Origin: Candidatus Pacebacteria bacterium CG_4_10_14_3_um_filter_34_15
GTDB taxonomy: Bacteria; Patescibacteriota; Microgenomatia; UBA1400; PJMF01
Assembly: GCA_002783105.1 (NCBI GenBank)
Contig: PFJN01000016.1
Span: 15,034-79,033, forward strand
Direction: 5' to 3'
DNA length: 64,000 nt
In this document: positions 47,616 through 63,468 of the stretch, piece after piece
How positions within the stretch are numbered: the first letter of the stretch is position 1
How the letters are laid out: every line of letters begins with the position of its first letter
Program-made: the position numbers and the translations under genes
The notes under the pieces: model-generated
What the model was told of the DNA's origin: nothing
The model's database searches: none
The model's input: the letters and a program-made list of their open reading frames with translations, nothing else

Positions 47616-48407
47616 TTAACTTCCAACTCCTGAATATTTTTTCAAAGCCCAGTTCCAAAATTTTAAACTTGCAATTAAACTTCCAACTCCTACAAGAATT
47701 GTTACAAAAATACTAAATGAGGGTTTGACACCTAATAAAACTTCGGTAGGAATTGTGATCATCATTCCAATGGGGATAATAAAGAAAAGCACAAACCGTA
47801 ATGGTTGCATGTACATTCCAATTGGAAATCTGCCCATTGAACTTAAGTCACGATAAATCCAAATAATTCCTTCAGTTTCAGTTGTAAGAATACCAATAGA
47901 TAAAATTAGGATATTTATGGCGGTAATGATTAATAAACCATTTGTTACGAGAATTAAATACCATACAAGTGATAACCAAGTTACAGAAATATCAAGATTA
48001 TTGAAAATATAAAAACTTACAGCTAATGAAGGAATCATAAAAATAGCATCATTTATATCAGGTTTACCGGTTAAGGCTCTAAACAAAGGATTGATAGGTT
48101 TAGTTAAATAAGCATCAAAAGATCCTAATCGAACTTCATTACTAAATACATACGTACCTCTATAAAAAATTTGACTAATTAAATCTATAAATTGATATGT
48201 GAGAAAAAAAACAATCATTTGAGCTGAAGTATATCCTGCAAAACTACTGACTGTATTTTTAATTAAAAACAAAAAAATTAATGAAAATGAAAAACGCAGT
48301 ACTTTGCCGATCATGAATAAAATGTTTGAGCCCCTATTTACAAGATTCTCTTGAATGGCGTTAAAGCCAAAAATTTTCCAAACATTAAAATATGTTTTTA
48401 GTCTCAT
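47616..48407 (-). CDS. ABC-2 family transporter permease (paralog 4 of 4)
   Basis: It is 263 aa with 6 predicted TM helices and the motif EVRLGSFDAYLTKPINPLF, shared in variant form by the other three permeases. Confidence 0.7.
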   Translation of the reverse strand: MRLKTYFNVWKIFGFNAIQENLVNRGSNILFMIGKVLRFSFSLIFLFLIKNTVSSFAGYTSAQMIVFFLTYQFIDLISQIFYRGTYVFSNEVRLGSFDAYLTKPINPLFRALTGKPDINDAIFMIPSLAVSFYIFNNLDISVTWLSLVWYLILVTNGLLIITAINILILSIGILTTETEGIIWIYRDLSSMGRFPIGMYMQPLRFVLFFIIPIGMMITIPTEVLLGVKPSFSIFVTILVGVGSLIASLKFWNWALKKYSGVGS

Positions 48408-48413
48408 ATTAAT

Positions 48414-49205
48414 TTAGATACCTACTGATTCATAAGATTTCAATCCCTTTTTCCAAATTTTATTTGTGATTGTTCCCAAAATAAATATCCAAAAAACTAG
48501 AATAACTGTATGTTTAAGAATGTCTTGGGAATTAAGTCGATTTAGAAATAATTGAATTTGAACAAAAGATAGGTATGGAAAAGGCGTAAGGTAAATTATT
48601 TTCTGGAGCATAATTGGTAAAATATCTAATGGAAAAAGTTTTCCAGCTGTAAAATCTAGAATCATGAAGAATAAAAACTTTGGTCCCCATACTTGAGGGC
48701 TCCAAAAACCCAAACTACCGAAAAGAAGTGTGATAATAAAATTTAAAATTAAACCTCCAAATGACCATATTAAAAATAACAAGAATAATTTCAAATCAGG
48801 AAATACAATAATTGGTTTGAAAATTAAAAATAAAAATAGAGATTCCAAAAACAAGAAAAGTAGATTCTTAATTTTGTCCGCAATTTCTTGAATTGCGAAT
48901 AGACCAAATAAATTAATTGGTTTCAATAAATAATTACTAATTTCTCCAGAGTATAGTCTACTTGCTAGGCCATTAAGAGAAGAAGCGATGATCATACTTT
49001 GCAAGAAGGCAACTAAGAATATATAAGTAATCATGCTCTCTTTAGAATAGCCAAAAGCACTGTTGTTTGAGGTAAAAATCACTGTCCACACAGTTAGAGA
49101 CATAAGGCTGGATAAGAATGACCTAAGACGCCATGTGAAGAGACTTAACCTATATACTAGACTGTTTTGCCAGGTTATTTTAAGGAGTGTTAAATATTTG
49201 GTCAT
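48414..49205 (-). CDS. ABC-2 family transporter permease (paralog 3 of 4)
   Basis: It is 263 aa, multi-TM, and carries SGEISNYLLKPINLF. Confidence 0.7.
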   Translation of the reverse strand: MTKYLTLLKITWQNSLVYRLSLFTWRLRSFLSSLMSLTVWTVIFTSNNSAFGYSKESMITYIFLVAFLQSMIIASSLNGLASRLYSGEISNYLLKPINLFGLFAIQEIADKIKNLLFLFLESLFLFLIFKPIIVFPDLKLFLLFLIWSFGGLILNFIITLLFGSLGFWSPQVWGPKFLFFMILDFTAGKLFPLDILPIMLQKIIYLTPFPYLSFVQIQLFLNRLNSQDILKHTVILVFWIFILGTITNKIWKKGLKSYESVGI

Positions 49206-50189
49206 TTAATGGATTTTCTTAGCGCCAAAGATCTCTCGAATCACAACTTCTATTGGAACTTCTTCAATATTCAAATCATTAACTTTAAATTGATTTAAAA
49301 TTTTAGAAGCTATCTTAGTTGCTTCTTTGCGAGGCACTATCAAAGTTGCTTGGTTATTTTTGAATGATTTTACAGTTCCAAATTGTTCGAGATCATTTTT
49401 TGTTATTGAGTTTTCAAGTGTCAGTGAAAGAATTTTATTTCGAGCATATTTATTAATAATGTCAGCTAATTTGCCATCATAAACTTTATGACCTTTATCG
49501 ATAATTATTACTCTTTCACAAAGCTCTTTGACATCGCCCATGTAGTGGCTAGTTAAAATGATTGTTGCTCCAAATTCTTTATTGTAAGTTTTAATGAAAT
49601 CTCTTAAGGTTTTTTGCATGACGACGTCTAAACCAATAGTTGGTTCATCTAAAAATAAAACTTTTGGATTGTGAAGCAAGGCCGCAATAATCTCACACTT
49701 CATTCTTTGACCTAGCGACAGTTTTCTAACCTGAATTCTTAAAATATCTTCAACATCTAAAATTTTTGATAGCTTTGCTAATGTTTCATCAAAAATTTTA
49801 TCCGGAATTTCGTAAATTGCTTTATTTAGGTGAAAGGATTCAATTGCTGGTAAATCCCACCAAAGTTGGTTCTTTTGTCCCATGACCAAGGCAAATTGTT
49901 TTTGAAATTCAGGTTTTCTATCCCATGGATTAAATTCTAAAACAGTAGTTTTTCCATCTGTTGGGTATAAAAGACCAGAGAGCATTTTTAGTGTGGTGGT
50001 TTTTCCAGCCCCATTTTGACCGATAAAACCGACAATCTCACCTTCGGCAATTTCAAAACTAACATCATCAACTGCTTTTACAGTTTCATAACTTCTTTTC
50101 CAAAGAGATTTAATGGAGCCCCAAAGTCCAGGTTCTTTTTTATAGACTTTGAAATATTTTTTTAGATTGCTGACTTTAATAGTGATCAT
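49206..50189 (-). CDS. ABC transporter ATP-binding protein
   Basis: It has Walker A GQNGAGKTT, an LSLGQRMK ABC signature variant, and Walker B LFLDEPTIGLD. Confidence 0.85.
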   Translation of the reverse strand: MITIKVSNLKKYFKVYKKEPGLWGSIKSLWKRSYETVKAVDDVSFEIAEGEIVGFIGQNGAGKTTTLKMLSGLLYPTDGKTTVLEFNPWDRKPEFQKQFALVMGQKNQLWWDLPAIESFHLNKAIYEIPDKIFDETLAKLSKILDVEDILRIQVRKLSLGQRMKCEIIAALLHNPKVLFLDEPTIGLDVVMQKTLRDFIKTYNKEFGATIILTSHYMGDVKELCERVIIIDKGHKVYDGKLADIINKYARNKILSLTLENSITKNDLEQFGTVKSFKNNQATLIVPRKEATKIASKILNQFKVNDLNIEEVPIEVVIREIFGAKKIH

Positions 50190-50221
50190 TTATGCCTTTC
50201 AAGCTATCTTTTTATTATACC

Positions 50222-51010
50222 TTAATTTCCAACACTTGAGTATTTTTTAATTGAAAATTTATAAAATAAAATTGTTAAATATGCAAAAACAGAGGTGAAC
50301 ATAAAAAAATAAAAAATATCAAAGATATTATTTCTGTTTAAAAGTATTTCACTGGGTAAAGTTGTAACTAATCCTAGTGGAAAAATAAAGGTAATTATAA
50401 ATCCTGTTAATCCCGTGTAAATTCTCGCTGGCATTTGATAGACACTTCTAAACCCAGGCATTATTTCATTAATATTGTTTAATTTTTCTGCCCAAAAAGT
50501 CAGTGTGGCCAGAAGGAACCAGCCACTATATATAAATATTATAGAAATTATAAAAACCAATGTGGCTAAAAGTATTTGATAAATTGTAACTTCAATTTGC
50601 ATTTTGATTGCAGTACTAATTAAAACTATAAGGCCGATAAAAAATCTTGGAACATTATGATAGGTTGCTTCTTGAGTTAAAATTATAAAAATATTGTTAA
50701 CTGGTAAGAGCAAAAGATTACTTAAGCTACCTTGATAAATTGATTCGGTGTAGTTAACCATATTTGGATAGAATACTGACCAAGTAAAAGCGTCCAGCAT
50801 GGTAAAAAATGAAAGTAAAATGAGAACTTCATCGTAACTCCATCCAGCTATAGTTTTACTATTGCCAATGATCAAGTAATAAAAAAAATAATTGAAAGCA
50901 GTCCACATGGTTGAAACTATTAGCCAGAAGAAAAAATCACCCCGGTACTCCATCATTTTCATGAGTTGAATTTTTCTGAATTTCCAAAATAAATTCCAAT
51001 ATTTTTTCAT
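50222..51010 (-). CDS. ABC-2 family transporter permease (paralog 2 of 4)
   Basis: It is 262 aa, multi-TM, and carries QGSLSNLLLLPVNNIF. Confidence 0.7.
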   Translation of the reverse strand: MKKYWNLFWKFRKIQLMKMMEYRGDFFFWLIVSTMWTAFNYFFYYLIIGNSKTIAGWSYDEVLILLSFFTMLDAFTWSVFYPNMVNYTESIYQGSLSNLLLLPVNNIFIILTQEATYHNVPRFFIGLIVLISTAIKMQIEVTIYQILLATLVFIISIIFIYSGWFLLATLTFWAEKLNNINEIMPGFRSVYQMPARIYTGLTGFIITFIFPLGLVTTLPSEILLNRNNIFDIFYFFMFTSVFAYLTILFYKFSIKKYSSVGN

Positions 51011-51018
51011 TATTTATA

Positions 51019-51819
51019 TTATCCTCCGGCTGAGGAATATTTATACCTCGCTTTTTTCCATAAAAAATTACTAAATAAAAACATGATTGCCAAAGTAGAT
51101 GAAATAAAAATATAATCATAAGTTTGTAGCTTCATTTTCCCTTGGATAATTTGTATAGGAACATAACTTAGATATTTAAATGGCAAAAAACTAAAAATAT
51201 TTTGTAACCAAACTGGCATAAATTCAAATGGTATTGTTGAACCGCTAAATAAAGAAATAAGAATCCATTTAAAATGTTCGAGACCGCTAGATCCTTCGAA
51301 CCAAAATGTCAGTAGCACAATCCAAAGCGCAATCATTATTTGAATAGCATATGCAGCTGCTAGTAATCCTAAAAACATAAATAAATTGTTTAACTCCAAA
51401 ATAATTTTAGAAACATGGAATAGTTTTAAAGAAAATATATAAAAAAGAGTTAGGATTGGAATAGAGATTATCAAGTTGACAATTTTCCCGCCCAATTCTC
51501 TTGAAATTATTTCGTGGATGTAGGAAAACGGTCTAGTTAAAAAATAATCAATTTTACCCATTCTAATCTCTTGGGAGCGCCAGCCTTCAAAGTAAGTTGC
51601 GGTGATTCTTTGAATAAAAACTACTAATATGTAGTATTGAACGATATCTGAAAAAGAATAATTATTAATGCTTTCTTGACCTGAATAAACTGCGCCCCAT
51701 AAAAAGAATAAGACGAAGAATGGAATGACGTCTAAGAATGCATAGATTGCAATTTCTTCTCTAAATTGTAATGTTTTAATAAACATGAATTTAAAGATTA
51801 GATAATATTTCTTTAGCAT
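51019..51819 (-). CDS. ABC-2 family transporter permease (paralog 1 of 4)
   Basis: It is 266 aa, multi-TM, and carries EIRMGKIDYFLTRPFSYIHEI. Confidence 0.7.
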   Translation of the reverse strand: MLKKYYLIFKFMFIKTLQFREEIAIYAFLDVIPFFVLFFLWGAVYSGQESINNYSFSDIVQYYILVVFIQRITATYFEGWRSQEIRMGKIDYFLTRPFSYIHEIISRELGGKIVNLIISIPILTLFYIFSLKLFHVSKIILELNNLFMFLGLLAAAYAIQIMIALWIVLLTFWFEGSSGLEHFKWILISLFSGSTIPFEFMPVWLQNIFSFLPFKYLSYVPIQIIQGKMKLQTYDYIFISSTLAIMFLFSNFLWKKARYKYSSAGG

Positions 51820-51895
51820 GTTGCTATTTTAGCACCTCTGGGACGATCTACCCAATAAGAGTTTAGGTTCTATGATTAGGAGACTGTTCATTATC

Positions 51896-51924
51896 AAAAA
51901 CCCCCGCTCGAGCGGGGGTTTAAT
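51896..51924 (-). terminator. rho-independent terminator downstream of the HU gene
   Basis: A perfect palindrome, cccccgctcgagcggggg at 51901-51918, is flanked by an A-run on + (51896-51900). On the minus strand this reads as a stem followed by TTTTT. Confidence 0.75.
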
Positions 51925-51959
51925 ACTTTTATTTTAAATCTACCAAGTAGCTTTTTAGT

Positions 51960-52235
51960 TTACCAAACTTGTTTCTTTAATGGTTTGCCAACTCTGAAGT
52001 TAACAACTTTATGACCTTTGATTGTCTGTCTTTTAGATTCATTACCAAAAGGGACTACTTGTTTGTCTCCAACTTTGCTAACATAAAATGTTCCGAATCC
52101 TGAAATAACTACTTTTTCACCTTTATTAAGTGAACGGATGACTTCTTCAAACAGTGCTTCGATAGCATCTGAAGAAGCTTTTTTTGTTAAGTGAGCTTTT
52201 TTTGCAATAACAGCAACCAATTGTGATTTAGTCAT
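51960..52235 (-). CDS. HU/IHF-family DNA-binding protein
   Basis: It is 91 aa and contains ..GEKVVISGFGTFYVSKV..RQTIKGHKVVNFRVGKPLK. Confidence 0.85.
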   Translation of the reverse strand: MTKSQLVAVIAKKAHLTKKASSDAIEALFEEVIRSLNKGEKVVISGFGTFYVSKVGDKQVVPFGNESKRQTIKGHKVVNFRVGKPLKKQVW

Positions 52236-52338
52236 TTTTATTCCCTTTTAATAATTATTAATTAGCCTCATATAGAGCGACTTAGATCAATCATTATCAC
52301 TTATTTTCTTCAGCTGTCAATCTTCAAAATGTTGCAAA

Positions 52339-52713
52339 TTAAATAAAATTATATCTTCTTAAGAACGCAACACTGACTCCGAGCATGTCATAACCGATGT
52401 CTCTTAAGGTAGCATACCTCCCAGGAACCAGTGATTGATGGAATTCATCACTCACGGCATAAAGCAGGCAAATTAAAATCGGAACGTAAAGATGTTTTGT
52501 TGACGTTTCTAAGTTTGTAGTTTGGTCTACAGCCCTTTTTAAAAGTAAATAAAGGATAAAATAGACAAAGAGATGAGCAGCTTTTTTAAAAATAAAGTCA
52601 AAACCTGATTCTTGAAAGCCGGCAATTACACTTTGAGATGATAAGATAAAGATAAAGGTTGCCCAGAGAATAGGTGGTAGATAAGCGTTCAATATTTTGT
52701 TAAATTTTTTCAT
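52339..52713 (-). CDS. VanZ-like family membrane protein
   Basis: It is 124 aa with 3-4 TM helices and a VanZ-like pattern (..ILWATFIFILSSQS..KAAHLFVYFILYLLL..). Confidence 0.5.
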   Translation of the reverse strand: MKKFNKILNAYLPPILWATFIFILSSQSVIAGFQESGFDFIFKKAAHLFVYFILYLLLKRAVDQTTNLETSTKHLYVPILICLLYAVSDEFHQSLVPGRYATLRDIGYDMLGVSVAFLRRYNFI

Positions 52714-53867
52714 TTGATAAAGAATAATCCAGAACTTGCTAGCATTGCACCTCCAATTATAACACTGATTATGGCTATTTTTGGCAAACTATTGTCTTTA
52801 ACCACCACTTGTTTTGAGATGTAATTATCTGTTTTGGCCGTAGAAGATTTATCAGCATTACTGACCGAAAGTAATCCATTTATTCTTTTTAAATTTGAAA
52901 TTTTTTGGGCTGATGTACTATCTGTAATAGTTTGTTTTTTATCAACATCGAGTTTATCTTCTGGAAATAACTGTGTTGTTGAAGTTATTTTTTGTTGAGA
53001 ACTGTTACTTTCATTTGAAGTATCTATTGAAGAAATTGGGACCCCAATTGAGCACTGTCCAAAATTTAGAGTGTCTATTATATTTTTATTAGGATCAAGT
53101 AGAGTTATTGTATCACCAGAATTATTTAGAATACTATTTTTTAGATAAATGGTTATAAAAGATATACCTGGTATTTCTTTATTTGAACTAAGAAGCATTT
53201 GGTTATTTGCAGAATCTTTTAGCAACCAATTATCGAGATTTACAGCTTCATTATTTGGATTCTTTACCTTAACCCATTCCTGGTTGTTTTCTTCTGGACA
53301 TGACATGATCTCGTGTATTTTAAGCGAAGGATATTCCATTAAGGTCTCTTGGCTAATTTCTTGTGTATCTTCTATTACTATTTCTGTTTCGTTATCTTCA
53401 GTGTTAGTCGGTAGAGGATTTGGAAGTCCCTTGCTTGGAACTGATAATGCAATTAACTTTTGATTATTTTCTGTAATTAACGAAAAACTCTTTCCTTGTT
53501 CAGAGCTCGAATATTCAAACTGATCAATGGTTTCGCCAAGGCTATTTATTAATAATACGCCATCAGCTGTGTTATTGAGTTTATTGTTCTCAATTTCAAT
53601 TACTAAATAAGTGAGCGGTTTCATTTCCAATTTATCGTCAAGAATTTGATTAAATTGGAAAATAATTGATGGGGCACTGAGTTTGTCCATCAAAATCCAA
53701 CCTGATAGATCAATAATTTCTGAAGAATCATTATAAATTTCTACCCACTCTTTTTCTTCTGCATTAGGTTTTGGATAAATCTCATTTATTATTGGAGAAG
53801 CAAAAACTGGTTTAGTAAAAAATATGGTGGTAAAAATAAATAAGATGACACAGAAAATTATCTTCAT
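52710..53867 (-). CDS. secreted protein with two lamin-tail domains (LTD) and C-terminal TM anchor
   Basis: A signal peptide precedes two LTD motifs, INEIYPKPNAEEKEWVEIYNDSSEIIDLSGWIL and IHEIMSCPEENNQEWVKVKN..NLDNWLL. The C-terminus has a hydrophobic anchor, IAIISVIIGGAMLASSGLFFIK. Confidence 0.65.
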   Translation of the reverse strand: MKIIFCVILFIFTTIFFTKPVFASPIINEIYPKPNAEEKEWVEIYNDSSEIIDLSGWILMDKLSAPSIIFQFNQILDDKLEMKPLTYLVIEIENNKLNNTADGVLLINSLGETIDQFEYSSSEQGKSFSLITENNQKLIALSVPSKGLPNPLPTNTEDNETEIVIEDTQEISQETLMEYPSLKIHEIMSCPEENNQEWVKVKNPNNEAVNLDNWLLKDSANNQMLLSSNKEIPGISFITIYLKNSILNNSGDTITLLDPNKNIIDTLNFGQCSIGVPISSIDTSNESNSSQQKITSTTQLFPEDKLDVDKKQTITDSTSAQKISNLKRINGLLSVSNADKSSTAKTDNYISKQVVVKDNSLPKIAIISVIIGGAMLASSGLFFIK

Positions 53868-53922
53868 TAGAATAATACTTTAAAGTATTATTCTTGTGTA
53901 AAATGTAGAGTTATGTGACTTT

Positions 53923-55176
53923 CTAATAAATAGTCAATCGGTCAACTGCAGTAATATTTGAAAGTGAGTGTTTGTCTGTAAATGGAATGTTATTGCCATC
54001 TGTTTCAAGAGGGTCTTTCATAATATATTTATCATTTTCTTTTTTGGTTATAACTATAAAATGATCTCCTGAACTACTTTGAGCTTTGATTCTAACAATA
54101 ACTGGTTTTCCAGAAGAGAGTTCTGAATCCAAGCAAGAGGTGTCGTAGCAAATTCTTTCTCTTAACACGCTGACTCCATTAAGTGACCAAGTATAGCCTC
54201 TAATCATATCAGCTGAGTATGGAACGAAAGGTGTTGCGCTGCCTGCAATTTGATTTGGACTGAGGGTCTTACCATAATGTGAGGTGATCATTGCTGTTGA
54301 AGTTACTAAGCATCCAACATATTTCATTGTCATGCCACTATTGCCAATTATTTGATTAGCCCAGGCGCTATCTCTTTGATTATAATAACAGCCCCAATCA
54401 TCACATTTTGTCATATTAGATAGTAATGAAATGTCTTTATTTGCGGTGTATCTTTTTATTGCATCAACTTGTTCTTTAGCTTCTTTCAACAATTTTTGAA
54501 ATTTCTGCTCATCATTTTGAGTAGCGGTAAGTAAATTTTTCTTTTCTTCCCTTTGAGCAACTAGATTATTTTGTTCAAGTTGTAATTGATATCTTTTAGT
54601 TTCAATTTCATCTTGTTTGATTGTTTTGATATCTTTCTGTTCATCATAAAAAACTTTTTGAGTTTGAGCTTTTTGCATGGCATCCGCTGTTTGTTTTCCA
54701 GCAAGACTTAAATATCGATGTTGATTAATAAATTTTGAAAGAGAGTTAGAAGTGAGCAGAATTTCTAAAGGATTTGACTGTTTTTGTTTATATTGAGTTC
54801 TAATTCTATCTACCAGCAGCGTGGCTAGTCGGTCAAGTGAAATGCTCAATCCAGAGATTCTGTCACCTAATGCCTCAATTTCTTTTTCAAGTTTGCTTAT
54901 TTCAGCTTCCCTTTGCTGAATTTGTAACTCTTGAATATTTATATTGCCATTGAAAACACTAATTGTACTGTTGAGCGTTGTTTTTTCGTTACTAATTTCT
55001 CCTAATCGATTTTCAATACAATTAATTTTTTTTTGCAGACATGAGTCGTAATCTGAACTGGTACTATCACAAGTAAAATCTTTTTCACAATCCTGAGCAT
55101 TGACTACATTCACAACTAATCCAAAGAATATATAAATGAGAAAAAGTACGACTGATAAATGTATTTTCTTGATCAT
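53923..55176 (-). CDS. secreted coiled-coil protein with C-terminal papain-like cysteine peptidase (C39-like/CHAP-like) domain; PcsB/CwlO-like putative peptidoglycan hydrolase
   Basis: A signal peptide precedes about 200 aa of heptad-rich coiled coil (..EISKLEKEIEALGDRISGLSISLDRL..). The C-domain has a catalytic-type Cys (GNSGMTMKYVGCLVTSTAM) and His (SGDHFIVI). It lies directly downstream of ftsEX. Confidence 0.6.
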   Translation of the reverse strand: MIKKIHLSVVLFLIYIFFGLVVNVVNAQDCEKDFTCDSTSSDYDSCLQKKINCIENRLGEISNEKTTLNSTISVFNGNINIQELQIQQREAEISKLEKEIEALGDRISGLSISLDRLATLLVDRIRTQYKQKQSNPLEILLTSNSLSKFINQHRYLSLAGKQTADAMQKAQTQKVFYDEQKDIKTIKQDEIETKRYQLQLEQNNLVAQREEKKNLLTATQNDEQKFQKLLKEAKEQVDAIKRYTANKDISLLSNMTKCDDWGCYYNQRDSAWANQIIGNSGMTMKYVGCLVTSTAMITSHYGKTLSPNQIAGSATPFVPYSADMIRGYTWSLNGVSVLRERICYDTSCLDSELSSGKPVIVRIKAQSSSGDHFIVITKKENDKYIMKDPLETDGNNIPFTDKHSLSNITAVDRLTIY

Positions 55177-55227
55177 AGTAAACTCAATAAACTAGTTAAA
55201 CGGTGATGTCAGCACGAGCCTATCGAG

Positions 55228-56097
55228 TTAATTTCTTATTAATCTTTGAATTGCAACTAAACTTGCATATCCTCCAAGGAAAACTCCAGAAAGTATGCCT
55301 ATAGTGCCATGAATAATATAGAATTCTATAGGAATTGGAAGAAGTTTAATTTCGCCTAATACTTCATTAATAGAGGGAGTTAAGTAAAGTAATATTGAAA
55401 AAGTAACCAACCAACCAATCGTAGCGCCCACGAGTCCATAGATCATTCCTTCATACATGAACGGAATTTTTATATATCCTTTAGTTGCTCCAAGTATTCT
55501 CATTACTGTAATAGATTTTTTCTGAGCTGTAGCTTTCATTGCGATCACTATCATGATTATTAGAAAAGAAATTAAGGCTAAGATTGAAGTTGCTGAGATT
55601 CCAATAATTTCAGCTGTATTAATCCATTTTGAAAGAATGGAAACTACATCTTCTTGAAAAACTACGTCTTCCACTTGATTGAATTCATCAAAATCATTTT
55701 TTATATTAATAAGTGATTCAATGTTTCGTCCAGAGACTTCAATGCTTGCTGGCAAAATATCAGCAGTAACTAACTCGAGTAGGAGCGGATCATTTTTGTT
55801 TTCTTCTTGGTAGAGTTTTAGAGCGTCGTCTTGGGTAATTATTTTTGCTGACTCTACGTAAGGTTTTGCTCTAATCTTTTCTGCGGTTTTTTCAATATCA
55901 GTAATTGGAGTTTCTAGTTCGAAAAAAGCAATTATCTGAGGTCTGGTTTCAAAATGCTGAAGAACTTTACTTGCCCCGATAACAAAAAGTGAAAATGAAA
56001 AACCTACAAAAAATGTTACAGCAACCATGATAATTGAGGTTAAGGCCTGGTATGGAGATCTTCTAATAGTGGTTAGGGCAGTTGCTAGTGAACTCAT
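55228..56097 (-). CDS. ftsX: cell division protein FtsX (ABC permease-like)
   Basis: It is 289 aa with an N-terminal TM helix, an extracytoplasmic loop, three C-terminal TM helices, and is adjacent to ftsE. Confidence 0.8.
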   Translation of the reverse strand: MSSLATALTTIRRSPYQALTSIIMVAVTFFVGFSFSLFVIGASKVLQHFETRPQIIAFFELETPITDIEKTAEKIRAKPYVESAKIITQDDALKLYQEENKNDPLLLELVTADILPASIEVSGRNIESLINIKNDFDEFNQVEDVVFQEDVVSILSKWINTAEIIGISATSILALISFLIIMIVIAMKATAQKKSITVMRILGATKGYIKIPFMYEGMIYGLVGATIGWLVTFSILLYLTPSINEVLGEIKLLPIPIEFYIIHGTIGILSGVFLGGYASLVAIQRLIRN

Positions 56098-56105
56098 ATT
56101 CTTCT

Positions 56106-56918
56106 TTATTTTGTTTTATTCTTTTTATCTGTGTTCTTTAATTTGTAATCTTTCGTTTCTTTTAATTTTGATTTAATTTTTTTCTTATCATCCACATCTG
56201 GTTTTGATTCCACATCTGACTTGGATTTCACATCCGGTTTGGATTCTTTTTTTGGCTTAGTGTCTTTTTTGATTTTGCCTTTTTCGAGTTCAATTTGTCT
56301 AACTCCTTTGAATAACTCCATAATATCATGATCATGAGTTGCTAAGATGATGGTAGTTCCAAAAGAATTTATTTTTTGAAGTAATTTCCCAATTTCAAGA
56401 GCAGTTTCCCTATCTAGATTTCCAGTTGGTTCATCTGCAAAAATAATTGTTGGACCGGTGGATAATGCTCTAGCGATACTAATTCTTTGAGCCTCTCCGC
56501 CAGAAAGTTGTTTTGGAAATAAAAAAGCTTTGTCTGTCAGGGAAATTAGTGTCAAAAGATCAGTTACTCTTTGTTCAATTTCTTCTTGTTTTTTGCCAAT
56601 AATAGAAAGGGGGAGAGCTATATTTTCCCAAATATTTAGCTCTGGGAGCAGTTTGTAATCTTGGAAGATAACGCCAATCTTCCTTTTATGCTCGTGAATT
56701 TGCGATTGTTTGATTTCATTTATATTTTTGTCAGCAAAGAAGATATCACCCGAAGTTGCCAGATGTTCTCTTGTCAATAATTTCATGATGGTGGTTTTTC
56801 CAGATCCAGAAGGACCTGTAAGAAGGACTAATTCGCCATCATCAATGTCAAAAGAAATATCATTAACTGCGTAAGAGTCTGGTGGAAAATATTTGCTGAC
56901 TGAGGTAAATTTAATCAT
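56106..56918 (-). CDS. ftsE: cell division ATP-binding protein FtsE with lysine-rich repetitive C-terminal tail
   Basis: It has Walker A GPSGSGKTT, LSGGEAQR and Walker B IIFADEPTGNLD. The tail reads KPKKESKPDVKSKSDVESKPDVDDKKK. Confidence 0.85.
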   Translation of the reverse strand: MIKFTSVSKYFPPDSYAVNDISFDIDDGELVLLTGPSGSGKTTIMKLLTREHLATSGDIFFADKNINEIKQSQIHEHKRKIGVIFQDYKLLPELNIWENIALPLSIIGKKQEEIEQRVTDLLTLISLTDKAFLFPKQLSGGEAQRISIARALSTGPTIIFADEPTGNLDRETALEIGKLLQKINSFGTTIILATHDHDIMELFKGVRQIELEKGKIKKDTKPKKESKPDVKSKSDVESKPDVDDKKKIKSKLKETKDYKLKNTDKKNKTK

Positions 56919-56973
56919 AATTTAAACCTAGTCTAGCCTGTTTACTAGTGACTTTGCAAGATTGAATTGAGGT

Positions 56974-57549
56974 TTATTCTTCTGCGGGAGACTCTGCGTC
57001 AACTTTTAGTACTTCAACTCTACCAACATCCATTAACCAGCCTGCTTTTTGACCTTTAAAAGTCTCTCCCCATACTTTAATTTCTGTTCCAGCGAGTTGC
57101 GTGAGATCGGTGACTGATGATGTTAAGTAGACTGTTTGGGATTCGCCACCTGGTCTTAAAAGTTTATGAGAACCTTCTCCATCGAGACCACCAACTTCTA
57201 AGTACCCTTCGGCGGAATCTTTAAACGATTCGTCCTTACTTCCAAATGTATCCCCAACATTTAATTTTCCGGCAGTCGGAAGTTCTTGAAGAGCCAGATT
57301 TGATTCGGACGAGTTAGATTTGTTTGCAAAAAGCTTGAAACTTCCAAAACCTGTACCTACACCAGATAGGACTGCAATAATTGTTAAAACTATAAATAAT
57401 CTTGAAGTACTTCTCATTGATATGTCTTTCTCTATGTTAGCTGTTCGAATACTTTCCAATTCAGGAGATTTTTGATTATGCTCTAGAAGCAAATCATCGT
57501 CAACTACGGCTTTGTTCTCGATGTCTTCCATAATGTCAATTTTTTTCAT
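56974..57549 (-). CDS. hypothetical membrane-anchored protein
   Basis: It is 191 aa with a single TM helix (LFIVLTIIAVLSGVGTGFG), an acidic N-terminus, and lies between prfB and ftsE. Confidence 0.4.
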   Translation of the reverse strand: MKKIDIMEDIENKAVVDDDLLLEHNQKSPELESIRTANIEKDISMRSTSRLFIVLTIIAVLSGVGTGFGSFKLFANKSNSSESNLALQELPTAGKLNVGDTFGSKDESFKDSAEGYLEVGGLDGEGSHKLLRPGGESQTVYLTSSVTDLTQLAGTEIKVWGETFKGQKAGWLMDVGRVEVLKVDAESPAEE

Positions 57550-57568
57550 ATATTTAATTATAACTGAT

Positions 57569-58663
57569 TTATAATTTTATTTCTTCTTGAATAAATATGT
57601 CTATATCACCGTCCAAAACAGCCTCCGTGTTTGTAGTTTCTACCTGAGTTCTAGTGTCTTTTACTAATTTGTAAGGGTGCAAAACGTAGTTTCTAATTTG
57701 ACTGCCAAAACTTGCGTTAACATGAACTCCTTTTTCTTTATTTAGCTCGTCTTGAAGTCTTTGGGCTTCTATTTGTGCTAATTTTCTTTTAAGTTTTATA
57801 AGTGCTTTTTCTTTATTTTGAACTTGGCTTCTTTCTTCTCGGCATCTGACTACAATTCCAGTTGGAACATGAGTTAACTCAACTGCGGTATTTACTTTAT
57901 TAACATTCTGCCCGCCAGCTCCACCGGCTCTTGAAAAATTCCAATTTAATTCTGAATCATTTATTTCTATTTCGTCATCGCTTTCGTCTATTAATGGTAA
58001 CGTTTCGACTAATGCAAAAGAAGTTTGTCTAAGATTATCGGCATTAAAGGGACTTTGTCTGACTAATCTATGTGTTCCTTGTTCATTTTTTAAATATCCG
58101 TAGGCATACTGGCTATCAATTTGGAATTCTGCAGATTTTATTCCGGCTTCTTCACCGCGGGATTCTGAAATCAACGTTGCTTTCCAACCTTTTCTTTCAA
58201 AAAATCGTGAATACATTCTTTTGAGCATTGAGGCCCAGTCCATGGCTTCCGTTCCACCTTGACCAGAGTGAACCGATAAAATAGCTCCATAGTTATCATA
58301 TTTACTGTTTAAATATTGTTTTAATTTCAACTCATAAAGTTTTTTTGATAATTTTGAGCAAGTGATACGTAAATCTATTTCAAGATTTTTAACAGTTTCC
58401 GCATCTTTTTCCTCGGCTACTAATTCTTGATACGTTTGTAGTTCAGCATTTAAATTTTTCACTGTTTCGAAATCCTCAATCTCTTCTTTGACAAGCGAGG
58501 TATTTTTCATCACTTTTTTTGCTTCTTTAGACTGCCAGAAGTTAGGTAAAAAAGTTTTTTCTTCTAAATCACTTAGTTCTTTTTTTAGTTTGTTTATATC
58601 GGCTGAAGACAAATAGATATTTGCATTCTCGATAAGTAGCGATGGTTCGTGACTTGAATTCAT
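57569..58663 (-). CDS. prfB: peptide chain release factor 2 (uninterrupted ORF, no programmed frameshift)
   Basis: It has the GGQ motif ([13 protein letters not shown]) and the SPF tripeptide ([10 protein letters not shown]) specific to RF2. It is a continuous 364-aa ORF. Confidence 0.88.
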
Positions 58664-58688
58664 AGAATGATTTTATCACGAATCTAGT

Positions 58689-60368
58689 TTATTGGAGATT
58701 AATCAGAGAATTTTGTTCTAGTAGAAATTGAGTAATAAAGGAGTCTTTTTTAATTGTGTACGGAGTTGCAGGAAGACCTGGCTGTTTTTGAATGTAAATT
58801 TGATTTTCATTTTGTTGGTTATTGGTTAGATAAATTTCCAGCACAGAATTTTCCTGTTCCATAAGCGTGATAATAAAACCAATTTCTTTAAATTCTTCAT
58901 TCTTTGAATTTTTAATAGTGGTTTCATGCCAATCAACAATCAGCGAGTCATTATATTTAATGTATTCTAAATTCTGTTCTTGTTTTAAGAATATTCTTTG
59001 ATAATTTACGTATCCAAGGTGATTGGCTTTATTACTATTATTAGATTCATTAACATTTTCAATTTCATCACCCATTAATTCAGATAAATTTGAAATCATT
59101 GGTGATAAGTTGTTATTTTTAAAATTAACAGTTATTAAAGTTTCATTGTTTTTTTTATCGATAAAAACCTCTCTAGTAATATTTTTATTTGCTTTATTTA
59201 TTCCGACATTTGATTCTACTAGAAAGAGATAATCTGCATTTTTTTTAAAACCAAGTTCTTGTCTAAAACTATATTTTGAAAATATTTTGTCTATCTCATC
59301 GACATTTGAATAAAGTTGAATATTATTATAAGCAAATTGATTTATAGTTTCTTGAAGAATATTAATTTTCGATTTTTCGTCAAGATTACTAATCTTAATT
59401 TGTAACTGTGTTAGTAGTTGAGAAAGAATGTGTTTTTTTTCTGTACTTCCAGGAAAGAAGGTGCCTCTTCTTGATCTAAGTACTTCAGTGATATTATTTC
59501 TGTCGACAATCGTATTATAATCTTTAAGTGTAATTCTGCCGGTAATTGATAAAATTAGTTTTGCATAATCTGGATTAACAGCAATAAGAGTAGTGACATT
59601 CTTTTTATTTCCAAGTGCAAAAAATTGCAATATTTGTTCAGCACTTGTTGGAAAATCTGGATTCCAATTGGCGTTTGGTAGTCTCAAACCTTTACTATCA
59701 CTTAGATATTCTTTAACACCGCTTGGAGCTTCGATGAATCCTTCAAACTGTCCGTCTGCATCGTATATATCCTCGGTTACAATTTCTGTAACTTTTCCAT
59801 TGACGATATCTAAAACAGCATAAGAGCCCATAAAACCACCAGTTGCTCGAATTTCATCCGAGTTCTGAAAAACTATAATAATTTTTTGGTCCTGATTTGA
59901 AAAGCTATCTAAAAATTTTATCATATCAGGCAAAGATTCAGAAAATTGATGAAACTTTTGAAGTTTTTCTTCACTAATTATTTTGTTTGCAATTTTTGAT
60001 TGATTAATTTGATTGTCAATAATTTGAATTTTTTGTTCTAGATCAATCAAAGTAATTTTTAAACCTGAAATATCAAAAATATAGTTGTTTTTGTGATTTA
60101 AGTTGCTGGCTGAGATTAGGGTGTCAGTATAAGAGGGAATATCACTGATCAAATATAATGAATTTTTAAATAATTCAAGGTCAGTATTGTTAGAAAAAGT
60201 AATTTTTGAGAGAGGCTCAATAATATAAAGGCATTTTAGAGCAGTTTCTCTTGCTTCTGGAAAATTTCCATTATTTAATTGGTTGAATGTGCGTGTGACT
60301 AAGAAAATCAGAATTGCAAAAACTGTTGCAGAAATTATCCCTAATAATATTAAGATTCTTTTCCACAT
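58689..60368 (-). CDS. hypothetical N-terminally anchored extracytoplasmic protein (DUF4012-like)
   Basis: It is 559 aa with an N-terminal TM helix (ILILLGIISATVFAILIFLV) and a large Asn/Ile-rich extracytoplasmic domain. Confidence 0.4.
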   Translation of the reverse strand: MWKRILILLGIISATVFAILIFLVTRTFNQLNNGNFPEARETALKCLYIIEPLSKITFSNNTDLELFKNSLYLISDIPSYTDTLISASNLNHKNNYIFDISGLKITLIDLEQKIQIIDNQINQSKIANKIISEEKLQKFHQFSESLPDMIKFLDSFSNQDQKIIIVFQNSDEIRATGGFMGSYAVLDIVNGKVTEIVTEDIYDADGQFEGFIEAPSGVKEYLSDSKGLRLPNANWNPDFPTSAEQILQFFALGNKKNVTTLIAVNPDYAKLILSITGRITLKDYNTIVDRNNITEVLRSRRGTFFPGSTEKKHILSQLLTQLQIKISNLDEKSKINILQETINQFAYNNIQLYSNVDEIDKIFSKYSFRQELGFKKNADYLFLVESNVGINKANKNITREVFIDKKNNETLITVNFKNNNLSPMISNLSELMGDEIENVNESNNSNKANHLGYVNYQRIFLKQEQNLEYIKYNDSLIVDWHETTIKNSKNEEFKEIGFIITLMEQENSVLEIYLTNNQQNENQIYIQKQPGLPATPYTIKKDSFITQFLLEQNSLINLQ

Positions 60369-60384
60369 TAATTATCTCATTCTA

Positions 60385-61083
60385 CTATCTGTAGCTTGCT
60401 TTGATGATCTTGTCACCGACTTCAATAGATTCTAGGACGTCCATACCTTCGACCAATTTTCCAAAAACTGCATGCTTCCCATCTAGGTGAGGTTGTGGGG
60501 CATATGTAATAAATATTTGACTACCACCGGTGTTTGGTCCTGAGTTAGCCATTGAAAGAATTCCAGCCGAATCATGTTTTAGTGTAGAATCGAATTCATC
60601 CATTATCTTATATCCTGGATCTCCCGTTCCCCAAATATTCTCGTTTCCTGCTATTTTTGTGAAAGGGTCACCGACTTGGGCCATAAATCCAGGGATGACT
60701 CTATGAAAAATAATTCCATCATAAAAACCGCTATCTATTAAGTCTAAGAAATTTGCTGTTGTAAGAGGTGTTTTGTCTCTATATAGATCAATGACTAGAG
60801 TACCTTTAGTTGTCTCAAAAACTGCTTGAGTGGCATCAATTTTTTTGAAATCTTCGATTGTTTTGTATTGTTTGTTTGGCATTGGCGAGGTTGTTTCCTT
60901 ATTAGTTAATTTAGTATCTGTCAATTCTATACCTGAATCATTATTATTTGGATCAAAATTTATTTTAATATCTTCTGGTAAATCTTTTGAAGTGTCAGCA
61001 TCTTCTGGGTTGGTACATCCGGAAAATAATATTGTAGTTGAAATCAGAAGGGTTGTAAGAGCAATTATTCGTGAGTTTTTCAT
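60385..61083 (-). CDS. peptidyl-prolyl cis-trans isomerase, cyclophilin type, lipoprotein
   Basis: It has a lipobox, LFSGC, after the MKNSRIIALTTLLISTTI signal, and the cyclophilin signature FHRVIPGFMAQVGD. The ATG at 61081-61083 is preferred over the track's 61278 start, which would add 65 non-homologous residues. Confidence 0.8.
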   Translation of the reverse strand: MKNSRIIALTTLLISTTILFSGCTNPEDADTSKDLPEDIKINFDPNNNDSGIELTDTKLTNKETTSPMPNKQYKTIEDFKKIDATQAVFETTKGTLVIDLYRDKTPLTTANFLDLIDSGFYDGIIFHRVIPGFMAQVGDPFTKIAGNENIWGTGDPGYKIMDEFDSTLKHDSAGILSMANSGPNTGGSQIFITYAPQPHLDGKHAVFGKLVEGMDVLESIEVGDKIIKASYR

Positions 61084-61222
61084 ATATTTGTTAGTATACT
61101 TAAGAATCAAAGAGATGCAACTTTTAAATTGAAAAGTAGAACTGAAACTGCTAAAACACTCAAAATATACTACAATTGACTCAAGAATGTATTCTAAACA
61201 AAGATTGGTCTCAAAATAAACG

Positions 61223-61966
61223 ATGAAAACAATATTTATACTCCATGGTTGGGCTGTTAGAGGAGCTGAGGAAAACAAAAAAATGTGGCAACCATTTATA
61301 GACGAGTTGGAATCGAGTGGTTTGCAAGTAATTTTTCTAAAAATTCCTGGACTTTCAGCACCGTTAAATGAAGTTTGGAATATGGATAACTATTTATCTT
61401 GGCTTGATAGTGAGATCGATAAAAAACTTGGTAACAGCAAAGTCATTTTATTAGGGCATTCTTTTGGTGGACATTTGGCTATTAGATATGTAGCTCAAAA
61501 TCCCAAAAAAATTGGAGAACTAATCTTAGTGGATAGTTCTGGAATCAGAGACATGGCTTCAAAAGCAGTTATTAAAAGAACTATTTTCTTAATACTTGCA
61601 AAAGTTGGTAAAGTTTTTTTTAAGTCTGAATTTTTTAGAAACATTATTTACAAGTTTGCTAGAGAAACTGATTATAGAAATGCTCCGCCTTTATTAAGAA
61701 GAACGATGTCTAAAATTTTGGACGATGAAATTCTTAATGATTTGTCAAAAGTTAATTGTCCTACAAAAATAATTTGGGGAGAGAATGATTTAACTACTCC
61801 GGTTAAGCATGCTAGAAAAATGCATCAGTTAATTGTTAATAGTGAACTTGTTTTTATTAAAGAAGGCAGGCATTCACCTCAATTCACTCATTCAAAAGAA
61901 ACTGCAAAATTAGTCAATGATTTTATTTTAAAAAATACTGGTTGTGAAACTGAAGGGAATAAATGA
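61223..61966 (+). CDS. alpha/beta hydrolase fold protein
   Basis: It has a GHSFGG nucleophile elbow and is 247 aa. Confidence 0.7.
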   Translation: MKTIFILHGWAVRGAEENKKMWQPFIDELESSGLQVIFLKIPGLSAPLNEVWNMDNYLSWLDSEIDKKLGNSKVILLGHSFGGHLAIRYVAQNPKKIGELILVDSSGIRDMASKAVIKRTIFLILAKVGKVFFKSEFFRNIIYKFARETDYRNAPPLLRRTMSKILDDEILNDLSKVNCPTKIIWGENDLTTPVKHARKMHQLIVNSELVFIKEGRHSPQFTHSKETAKLVNDFILKNTGCETEGNK

Positions 61967-63468
61967 AAACTCTTTCAATACTAGCAATCTTTTTTACATC
62001 ATTTTTTATTAGAGCGTTAAGATGGTTGGCGGTTGTTCAACAAAAAGAATATCGCATCGATAGATTAATTCTATTTATAAAATCTGACGAAGGCAAAAAA
62101 GAGCTGTTCAGAATATTTCCTCAAAAAAAAGATTTTTCAAGAACTGGCTTAAAGCGACCTAAAATAACTTCGCGAATATTAATTGTTACAATTATATTTA
62201 TAATCTTGTTTTCATTTTTAGTGACATGTTTAGTTGTAAAAAGTTTTGTATTTGGGAGTCTAGTTTTTATACTTTACATATTATTGGGTTTATTAATTTA
62301 TTTAATAATCACGCCAATATTAGTAATGATTTCAATTTTGCCGACAACTTTAATTGCTTTATTTAGAGTTTGGCTAGAATTATTATCCGCAAAAGCAAAA
62401 GTTAAAAAAATAAAACCAAATATCATTGGGATTACTGGAAGTTATGGAAAGACTTCTACAAAATTACTTTTAGCAACGGTTTTAGAAAAAAAATATAATG
62501 TTTTTAAAACTCCTAAATCATTTAATACTAAATTTTCTGTTGCTCAAAGTATCAATAAAGGATTTAAAAATCAAGAAATAATGATTCTTGAATATGGGGC
62601 CTACAAAAAAGGTGAGATAAAGACACTAGCATCGTGGTTTAAGCCGAATATGGCCATTATCACGGGTTTAGCGAAGCAACATCTGGGGTTATTTGGCAAT
62701 ATCGAAGCAATTATTGAAGCTAAATCTGAGCTAGTTAAATCTTTAGCTTCCGGTTCAGTTGTGATTTGGAACGGGAATGACAAAGGTGCTAAGAGAATTT
62801 GTGAAAAAGGAATAAGTGAAGATTCAATTTCAAAAGGCAATCTCGAAATTCTTGAAGCAAAAATCGATAACAAAAATTCCGTTACAATGAAGGCTCACTT
62901 AAACAAAGTTGGAAAACTTCAATTTGTTTTTGCTGGCCAGCAAGTTAATACTAATTTGCTAGGAATGCATTATCTCGAAATAATTGTAATGGTTATTTTA
63001 GTAGCTAAAAAGCTTGAAGTGAGTGACAAGGATATTGTTGAGGCAATTTCAAAATTTGTTCCTGACGACAAATTTATTTATTCATACAGCACAAAGACGG
63101 GAAGTTTAATAATTGACGATGGTGGATCAAGCAACTTAAATGGATTTGTTGCTGCAATTAACTTAGCTGCCCATATTAAGCATCCAAAAAAAGTTCTCAT
63201 TACTTCGGGAATTGTTGATTTGGGAAATGAATCAAACAGTATTCATACTGAATTAGCCAAAAAAGCATTTGAAATCTTCGACACAGTTTTTTATGTTGGA
63301 GAATCGGGGATTAAGCAATTTCAAAGCGTGTTTAAAGATAGGCTTTTTAGTGCTGAATCTGCAAGCGATCAAACTAGAATTATAAACTTTTTGTTAAACT
63401 TGACTTATTATGAGATGATTCTTATTGAGGGCAGAATACCTGGTTGGATAAAAAAATATTTAAAATAA
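61963..63468 (+). CDS. Mur ligase family protein (MurF-like) with N-terminal multi-TM domain
   Basis: Residues 1-130 carry about 3 TM helices. These are followed by GITGSYGKTSTK (the Mur ligase P-loop), an ITGLAKQHLGLFGNIEAI motif, and IIDDGGSSNLNGF, which resembles MurF IDDSYNANP. Confidence 0.6.
   Translation: MKTLSILAIFFTSFFIRALRWLAVVQQKEYRIDRLILFIKSDEGKKELFRIFPQKKDFSRTGLKRPKITSRILIVTIIFIILFSFLVTCLVVKSFVFGSLVFILYILLGLLIYLIITPILVMISILPTTLIALFRVWLELLSAKAKVKKIKPNIIGITGSYGKTSTKLLLATVLEKKYNVFKTPKSFNTKFSVAQSINKGFKNQEIMILEYGAYKKGEIKTLASWFKPNMAIITGLAKQHLGLFGNIEAIIEAKSELVKSLASGSVVIWNGNDKGAKRICEKGISEDSISKGNLEILEAKIDNKNSVTMKAHLNKVGKLQFVFAGQQVNTNLLGMHYLEIIVMVILVAKKLEVSDKDIVEAISKFVPDDKFIYSYSTKTGSLIIDDGGSSNLNGFVAAINLAAHIKHPKKVLITSGIVDLGNESNSIHTELAKKAFEIFDTVFYVGESGIKQFQSVFKDRLFSAESASDQTRIINFLLNLTYYEMILIEGRIPGWIKKYLK

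Follow-up and report, generated by a model that had tools for sequence, protein, structure and literature searches.

FtsEX-controlled hydrolases are the best-understood case of safe, switchable cutting of the cell wall. A 2024 review of FtsEX lists EnvC, with a degenerate LytM domain, PcsB, with a CHAP domain, and RipC and CwlO, with NlpC/P60 domains, and mentions C39 0 times (PMC11627006). PcsB is autoinhibited and is directly activated by FtsX (PMC11627006). Here we describe an ftsEX locus in a 64,000-nucleotide (nt) stretch of DNA ('the window'; PFJN01000016.1, positions 15,034-79,033) from Candidatus Pacebacteria bacterium CG_4_10_14_3_um_filter_34_15, which belongs to an uncultivated phylum with minimal genomes whose cell division is almost unstudied. 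In the open reading frame (ORF) listing, seven minus-strand genes occupy window positions 52339-58663 in the order prfB, a gene for a 191-amino-acid (aa) membrane protein, ftsE, ftsX, a gene for a 417-aa secreted protein, a gene for a double lamin-tail-domain (LTD) protein and a VanZ gene. The 417-aa protein joins a coiled coil to a Peptidase_C39_2 domain. We consider it likely that the locus is an FtsEX cell-wall hydrolase module and that the 417-aa protein is a putative FtsEX-controlled peptidase of the cell's own wall.

Full-text literature searches returned no paper that links FtsEX to a C39 domain or that describes such a module in the Candidate Phyla Radiation (CPR)/Patescibacteria. In databases, members of the 417-aa family are labelled 'C39 family peptidase' (NCBI) and, in many cases, 'peptidoglycan hydrolase CwlO-like protein' (JGI). 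The general idea is therefore already implicit in automated annotation.

The coiled-coil C39-like protein encoded after ftsX

The identities of FtsE and FtsX follow from their best family matches. TIGR02673 is the top NCBIfam match of FtsE (245 bits, cutoff 264.85), the next family scoring 169 bits. FtsX contains the Pfam domains FtsX_ECD (aa 54-145; 47.2 bits, cutoff 23.5) and FtsX (aa 169-287; 42.7 bits, cutoff 25.5), and its top match is TIGR00439, at 154 bits and under the equivalog cutoff of 255. Scores under the equivalog cutoffs are expected for both proteins, because the phylum is divergent.

The gene directly after ftsX encodes the 417-aa protein. A first-pass annotation, made from the DNA sequence alone, had placed ftsEX directly upstream of a secreted protein with a coiled coil and a C-terminal cysteine peptidase, and the adjacency of ftsX and the Pfam match to Peptidase_C39_2 bear this out. 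An AlphaFold2 (AF2) model of the protein, with a predicted local distance difference test (pLDDT) score of 88, begins with a hydrophobic signal-peptide helix at aa 3-19, which is conserved in the alignment; a near-invariant Cys30 lies just after the signal peptide. Helices follow at aa 43-62, 68-132, 146-219 and 223-245, of which the long ones (68-132 and 146-219) pair as a hairpin and the last bears a conserved T-x-N-D-E-x-x-[YF]-Q motif. From approximately residue 250, the model forms an alpha/beta domain. Peptidase_C39_2 (PF13529) matches aa 264-389 over profile positions 5-142 of 143, at a score above its threshold (Table 1), and PF03412 also matches the protein (24.9 bits, cutoff 22). An alignment of 43 members with identities down to 34% shows no variation at Gln267, Cys289, His372 and Asp388 or in the motif WGCYYNQRD. 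The C-terminal domain thus has the papain-like C39 fold, and the peptidase fold foreseen in the first-pass annotation is present. The comparison set for C39 and C39-like domains comprised ComA, PCAT1 and B. anthracis 3ERV, together with Pfam PF03412 and PF13529. The best structural match of the domain is a wall cross-link isopeptidase; when the sequence of the catalytic domain was searched on its own against those in the PDB, nothing matched.

The N-terminal half of the protein resembles the coiled coils of known FtsX partners. With the family profile, the coiled coil of E. coli EnvC is found at an E-value of 7.5e-10 over approximately 210 residues (aa 24-236), followed by EnvC at 3.3e-7, V. 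cholerae EnvC at 2.2e-5 and the metallopeptidase 8i6o at 6.9e-4, whereas generic coiled coils match at 1e-4 or worse and over 70-90 residues only. To survey proteins of this type, the coiled coil alone was searched exhaustively against 1.84 billion representatives, which yielded 613 proteins; the domain census covers the 112 full-length proteins among the best 150 of these matches. The Pfam family CC_PcsB matches 43 of the 112 relatives that share the coiled coil (best E-value 3.5e-9). Taken together with the EnvC match, this is in agreement with the PcsB/CwlO/EnvC-like architecture that had been proposed for the protein. The strongest motif of the coiled coil lies at aa 215-230 and adjoins the catalytic domain.

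Gene order and domain exchange among relatives

The 417-aa family has 623 database homologues, and relatives occur in 413 species-level genomes. Gene order was examined in 80 loci from different species genomes, the ORFs of which were searched with the window proteins; the sample comprises Pace-, Woese-, Collier-, Roizman- and Shapirobacteria, together with metagenome-assembled genomes (MAGs) mislabelled as Pseudomonadales. The loci counted for upstream ftsX are the 73 with enough DNA on that side. ftsX lies immediately upstream of the peptidase gene in 68 of 73 loci, three more having one gene inserted, and the ftsX stop and the peptidase start overlap by 4 nt in 24 loci. ftsE is present in 66/69 loci, the 191-aa gene is present and linked to ftsE in 64/68, and prfB lies upstream of the 191-aa gene in 59/65. 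By contrast, a recognisable LTD gene directly follows the peptidase gene in 19/69 loci, and VanZ lies within 5.5 kb downstream in 29/60. The broadly conserved core therefore comprises five genes only (prfB, the 191-aa gene, ftsE, ftsX and the peptidase gene), and it is conserved across at least five candidate class-level groups. Conservation of the entire seven-gene order in related Patescibacteria had been set as a check; this holds for the core across Microgenomates-type Patescibacteria, but the full order is seen only in closer relatives (L001-L007, L055 and some others; L numbers denote related loci). The prfB-ftsE-ftsX synteny described earlier is likewise kept as an order, but prfB and ftsE are not adjacent, since the 191-aa gene lies between them.

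Two features of the sample were noted in passing. The MAGs with the locus that are titled 'uncultured Pseudomonadales', 'Gammaproteobacteria' or 'Alphaproteobacteria' (L003-L006, L013, L014, L016, L025-L027 and many others) look like taxonomic mislabels. In L010 (8272-11765), a 796-aa protein without a Pfam match and a sortase-domain protein are encoded between the peptidase and LTD-VanZ-HU.

The catalytic domain on this coiled coil is not constant. Two family homologues with the same coiled coil carry Peptidase_M23 in place of C39_2. One of them, P0028, is encoded in the fully syntenic close relative L081 (7001-8239), in which the order is cyclophilin, DUF4012, prfB, a 190-aa gene, ftsE, ftsX, P0028, LTD, VanZ, HU and ABC-2. 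Over aa 1-240, P0028 and the window protein share 80% identity; the similarity then ends and an M23 domain follows. Among the 112 representatives, M23 is found in 62 and C39_2 in 43, and neither CHAP nor NlpC/P60 is found in any. Both of the M23-type representatives checked for context are encoded directly after ftsX with a 4-nt overlap, one having DUF4012, prfB and the OB-fold (191-aa) protein upstream and the other LTD and VanZ downstream; an M23-type locus at which VanZ follows is L083. In some genomes (L028, L064), the C39_2 and M23 types stand in tandem after ftsX.

The M23 domains on this coiled coil are circularly permuted in 55 of 63 M23-type representatives and have the canonical order in none. 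In the permuted form, for example at L081 7001-8239 (P0028), L028 8239-9495 and L064 8140-9333, the HxH motif (HLHF, ~aa 275) precedes HxxxD (HPAMD or HxGID, ~aa 350-360), and the chain stops midway through the Pfam profile. The HxH and HxxxD metal ligands are kept.

The coiled coils cluster by lineage and not by catalytic domain. P0028 and P0114, both of M23 type, are 63% identical, yet each coiled coil is nearer to that of a C39_2 protein of its own lineage. It follows that, on more than one occasion, either the catalytic domains changed places or the coiled coils became homogenised, and the history may be one of repeated swaps or gene conversion. A one-step deletion between tandem C39 and M23 genes was considered as the origin of the L081 chimera and rejected, as P0028 is only 33% identical to the tandem M23-type protein of L028. 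As judged from these sequences, the pattern fits a coiled coil that serves as an FtsX-binding scaffold with a swappable wall-hydrolase module.

Companion genes and surroundings

The first-pass annotation counted seven genes correctly but left the 191-aa gene unnamed, which proves to be the most conserved extra partner at the locus. Its product has 3488 homologues, none of them named and none with a Pfam domain, and matches COZ34_01240, annotated as hypothetical in a Candidatus Pacebacteria MAG, at 100% identity, which confirms that the DNA comes from Patescibacteria. The protein has no signal peptide and consists of a variable cytoplasmic N-terminus, one transmembrane (TM) helix (~aa 49-70, with GxGTGxG) and an extracytoplasmic OB-fold domain of ~90 aa. 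This ectodomain is highly conserved, with 30 invariant columns (for example, in GEGSH, SQTVYLTSS and KAGWLMDVG), and the protein as a whole is more conserved than the peptidase: in L082, identity is 61%, compared with 44% for the coiled coil. Pfam searches at E-values up to 10 and a PDB profile search gave nothing meaningful, and similarity to any named family was not detected. The gene keeps to ftsE slightly more often than to prfB, gaps of more than 300 nt occurring in 4/64 loci on the ftsE side and in 9/60 on the prfB side. A precedent for a bitopic partner exists in SweC and SweD, type II membrane cofactors of B. subtilis FtsEX-CwlO (PMC6705773). The bitopic topology and ftsE linkage of the 191-aa protein are compatible with such a role by analogy, and we suggest that it is probably an accessory membrane partner of the FtsEX complex.

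FtsE carries the lysine-rich repeat tail that had been noted earlier (aa 216-270), which is rich in Lys, Asp and Ser and has SKPDV-like repeats. It is not, however, a conserved property of the module. Tails in relatives are charged, range from 0 to 265 aa and cannot be aligned, and the tail is therefore a lineage-variable, disordered, low-complexity extension. Separately, one short amphipathic motif of the form G-F-[LF]-x-x-L-F-x-K-K-K recurs in many of the long charged FtsE tails of Pacebacteria-like relatives (for example, as GFLSSLFGKK and PSFFKKLFARKK; loci L003, L005, L006, L007, L010, L011, L040, L044, L055, L057 and L060) but is missing from the tail of the window's own FtsE. This motif may be a membrane- or partner-binding helix.

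The LTD protein starts with a signal peptide; two lamin-tail domains and a Ser/Thr-rich linker follow, and a TM anchor forms the C-terminus. Woese- and Collierbacteria have, in the slot between the peptidase and VanZ, a protein of 260-290 aa that combines a signal peptide with a ~110-aa beta domain, a Pro/Thr-rich linker and a C-terminal TM anchor. Its head domain has the motifs YFGxTxN...GPGxYxxKxxRxT and no Pfam match, in a stalk-like layout that is the same as that of the window's LTD protein (L024 8195-9055, L029 8155-8964, L046 2867-3736, L059 8112-8894, L065 8262-9059, L072 8129-8953 and others). We rejected these slot proteins as LTD proteins, as Pfam gives one weak match in ten and only the layout is common. 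The two genes after the peptidase gene had been put forward as extra partners; they are present in the window but only partly conserved in relatives, and we regard the surface protein and VanZ as envelope-related companions with a looser tie to the module.

Table 1. Positions of the locus, its protein parts and its flanking genes in the window
Feature	Positions	Strand	Details
prfB, peptide chain release factor 2	57569-58663	-	364 aa; TIGR00020 415 bits (cutoff 370); Pfam PCRF and RF-1 match
191-aa bitopic membrane protein, unannotated	56974-57549	-	without Pfam or NCBIfam match
ftsE, ABC ATPase of FtsEX	56106-56918	-	270 aa; TIGR02673 best match
FtsE tail	56109-56273	-	aa 216-270
ftsX, permease-like subunit with extracellular domain	55228-56097	-	289 aa; Pfam FtsX_ECD and FtsX
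Secreted coiled-coil and Peptidase_C39_2 protein	53923-55176	-	417 aa; Pfam C39_2 36.9 bits (cutoff 24)
Signal peptide of the 417-aa protein	55096-55176	-	aa 1-27, ...VVNVVNA
Coiled-coil hairpin of the 417-aa protein	54442-55050	-	aa 43-245; DSSP on the AF2 model
C39-like papain-fold cysteine peptidase domain of the 417-aa protein	53926-54429	-	aa 250-417
Gln267 codon	54376-54378	-	
Cys289 codon	54310-54312	-	
His372 codon	54061-54063	-	
Asp388 codon	54013-54015	-	
Double-LTD surface protein	52710-53867	-	385 aa; Pfam LTD 103 bits, two stretches (cutoff 34.3)
VanZ-family membrane protein	52339-52713	-	124 aa; Pfam VanZ 43 bits (cutoff 30.1); NF037970 75 bits (cutoff 20)
DUF4012 protein	58689-60368	-	559 aa; 25-nt gap to prfB
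Secreted or lipoprotein-like cyclophilin	60385-61278	-	16-nt gap to the DUF4012 gene
HU	51960-52235	-	
ABC-2 type transporter block	47616-51819	-	two permeases, one ATPase, two more paralogous permeases
Mur ligase	61963-63468		

The seven co-directional genes lie exactly where the first-pass annotation had them, separated from prfB to VanZ by 19, 55, 8, 51, 55 and -4 nt, the last value being a 4-nt overlap of the VanZ start with the LTD-gene stop. The cluster is thus tight, as had been described, with gaps between -4 and 55 nt, but it is not a separate unit: the co-directional run spans ~15 genes (47616-61278), with DUF4012 and then cyclophilin upstream of prfB, and HU and then the ABC-2 transporter downstream of VanZ. 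Scans for promoters and terminators gave counts not above those of shuffled sequences, and no internal operon boundary could therefore be set. The sole notable sites flank the HU gene. The region's best promoter-like site (TTGACA-16-GATAAT, 52320-52293) lies just upstream of it, and a perfect GC-rich palindrome, AAACCCCCGCTCGAGCGGGGGTTT (51898-51921), which could terminate transcription in both directions, lies just downstream. An Rfam scan of the whole 64-kb window found no family at the gathering score, including no tRNA, riboswitch or ribosomal-protein leader, and thus no riboswitch, leader or tRNA to explain regulation, even though ORFs of the size of rpoB/rpoC and a long series of ORFs of the size of small ribosomal-protein genes lie in the window.

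Further observations concern individual neighbours. Cyclophilin and DUF4012 upstream of prfB are kept in Pacebacteria-like relatives, L081 and L082. The listed cyclophilin ORF begins at TTG, and the true start is probably further in, because the L081 homologue has 232 aa. The order of genes in the ABC-2 block is the same in close relatives. The window's prfB is a single uninterrupted ORF, of which residues 19-362 match the RF2 model, and seems to lack the programmed +1 frameshift known from many other bacteria. The presence of the Mur ligase gene shows that the organism makes peptidoglycan.

Putative mechanism, alternatives and known systems

In the mechanism that we propose, the cytoplasmic ATPase FtsE and FtsX, with its extracellular domain, would form the usual mechanotransmission complex. 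The antiparallel, EnvC/PcsB-like coiled-coil hairpin of the secreted 417-aa protein would dock on the FtsX extracellular domains, which we infer because it is homologous to the coiled coils of EnvC and PcsB and because the genes are tightly linked. As FtsE binds and hydrolyses ATP, FtsX and the coiled coil would be set in motion, and the C39-like peptidase would be freed from an autoinhibited state, by analogy with described systems (PMC11627006). Once free, the peptidase could cleave stem peptides or cross-links in the cell's own peptidoglycan as the cell divides or grows. Activation would be direct, as for PcsB, CwlO and RipC, and not via an amidase, as for EnvC; the intact catalytic residues favour direct hydrolysis over EnvC-like amidase activation.

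Which bond might be cut is a matter of speculation. C39 enzymes cleave after Gly-Gly, as do lysostaphin-type M23 enzymes, and a cross-link endopeptidase would be compatible with this specificity, with the isopeptidase structural match and with the alternation with M23. A broader reading, which we offer as a tentative possibility, is of a four-part FtsEX system in Microgenomates-type Patescibacteria, in which the OB-fold protein would be an obligatory extracytoplasmic cofactor (a SweC/SweD counterpart or a wall sensor) and the scaffold would be indifferent to chemistry, so that C39-like and permuted M23 domains could be freely exchanged.

Several points weigh against an FtsEX-controlled wall peptidase. 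In L070 and L080, the peptidase gene has no ftsEX nearby. The coiled-coil profile matches are biased, 27 of 41 bits being compositional bias, and on the window protein alone CC_PcsB scores 18.1 bits, under the Pfam cutoff of 27. Foldseek full-chain matches, which include EnvC in FtsEX (8tzl_E), RipC in FtsEX (8idc_E) and PcsB (4cgk) and support the homology of the coiled coil, all have E-values above 1e-3 against the PDB. A conservation peak was sought at the hairpin tip, the region of EnvC-FtsX contact, and none was found, conservation along the hairpin being fairly even. We know of no peptidoglycan activity for the C39_2 coiled-coil family, and characterised C39 peptidases are cytoplasmic leader-peptide processors and not wall hydrolases.

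This last precedent would suit a C39-like domain that is a protein- or peptide-processing protease held by FtsEX at the membrane. It would leave peptidoglycan uncut and might instead mature or shed a protein that is secreted or displayed at the surface, for example the neighbouring stalk protein or a precursor of double-glycine type. We judge this unlikely. M23 enzymes are classical peptidoglycan endopeptidases, and of the indirect evidence for likely wall action by the C39_2 domain, its interchange with M23 in the same slot is the strongest. Peptidase_C39_2 is also counted among the enzymatically active domains of endolysins from phages of Gram-positive hosts (PMC8223927, PMC13284279), which gives independent support, at the level of annotation, for wall action. 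The wall in question could be that of a host bacterium, with the hydrolase a weapon of episymbiont attachment or feeding and FtsEX merely its membrane-bound switch. Passages in two papers describe Patescibacteria as widely inferred episymbionts (PMC13059738, PMC11809585), reduced genomes might reuse a regulated hydrolase, and variable surface proteins are encoded alongside this one. However, the cluster sits amid housekeeping genes (prfB, HU and Mur ligase), its conservation extends over the class-level groups given above with translational coupling to ftsX, and a Pfam scan of the 417-aa protein found no wall-binding or host-targeting domain. Moreover, all characterised FtsEX systems act on their own wall (PMC11627006), and an attack on a host wall seems to us improbable.

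That the 417-aa protein is a catalytically silent, EnvC-like activator of a separate amidase is suggested by its coiled coil, which is nearest to that of EnvC in sequence, and by the peptidase-fold C-terminal domain that EnvC too possesses (PMC11627006). The invariance of Gln267, Cys289, His372 and Asp388 in 43 sequences, unlike the degenerate EnvC site, and the retention of both metal-ligand motifs in the M23 counterparts make a silent protein very unlikely. Finally, in a co-directional run of ~15 unrelated genes, with LTD and VanZ only partly conserved, the adjacency of ftsX and the peptidase gene might reflect nothing beyond a shared long housekeeping transcription unit. This we find hardly credible, because the adjacency and its 4-nt overlap recur across the sampled loci while the flanks vary, and the M23 form obeys the same slot rule. 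An FtsEX-controlled peptidase of the cell's own wall is the reading that we compare with known systems.

Like the 417-aa protein, PcsB of S. pneumoniae is secreted and joins a coiled coil at its N-terminus to a papain-fold Cys/His peptidase at its C-terminus. The two differ in the catalytic domain, which is CHAP in PcsB and Peptidase_C39_2 here, and the similarity of the family profile to PcsB itself is marginal (E-value 0.097). They also differ in gene order, as the window gene immediately follows ftsX, whereas in the pneumococcus pcsB is not known to lie next to ftsEX. EnvC of E. coli, V. cholerae and P. aeruginosa has a degenerate LytM domain that activates amidases, in contrast to the intact cysteine-peptidase set of the window protein and to the M23 domains of its relatives, which are intact but circularly permuted. 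RipC of M. tuberculosis and CwlO of B. subtilis are, similarly, coiled-coil hydrolases of monoderm or mycolate bacteria under direct FtsEX control, and CwlO needs the bitopic cofactors SweC and SweD; their NlpC/P60 catalytic domain, however, is absent among the 112 proteins with the window-type coiled coil. In the ABC exporters ComA and PCAT1, the C39 domain sits at the N-terminus, on the cytoplasmic side, and cleaves off double-glycine leader peptides, whereas the C39-like domain of the 417-aa protein lies outside the cytoplasm and is joined to an FtsX-type coiled coil. The pseudomurein endoisopeptidase PeiR (8z4h; 17% identity) is an archaeal-virus or prophage enzyme that acts on pseudomurein and has neither a coiled coil nor a link to FtsEX.

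Relative to these systems, the new elements are a C39_2 catalytic class under a familiar FtsEX control logic, the strict operon arrangement of ftsX and the hydrolase, the conserved OB-fold membrane partner and the natural exchange of C39_2 and M23. With its many homologues that lack a name, the OB-fold protein offers a concrete candidate for an accessory factor of FtsEX that would be new, and the presence of C39_2 or permuted M23 on a near-identical coiled coil in the same slot constitutes a ready-made experiment on the control of unrelated catalytic domains. If the four-part reading were correct, C39_2 would be a fourth catalytic class of FtsEX-governed wall hydrolases, accompanied by a new family of divisome components. 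If the 417-aa protein is the wall peptidase that we propose, a C39-like cysteine peptidase would join CHAP, NlpC/P60 and degenerate LytM on the list of domains that FtsEX controls.

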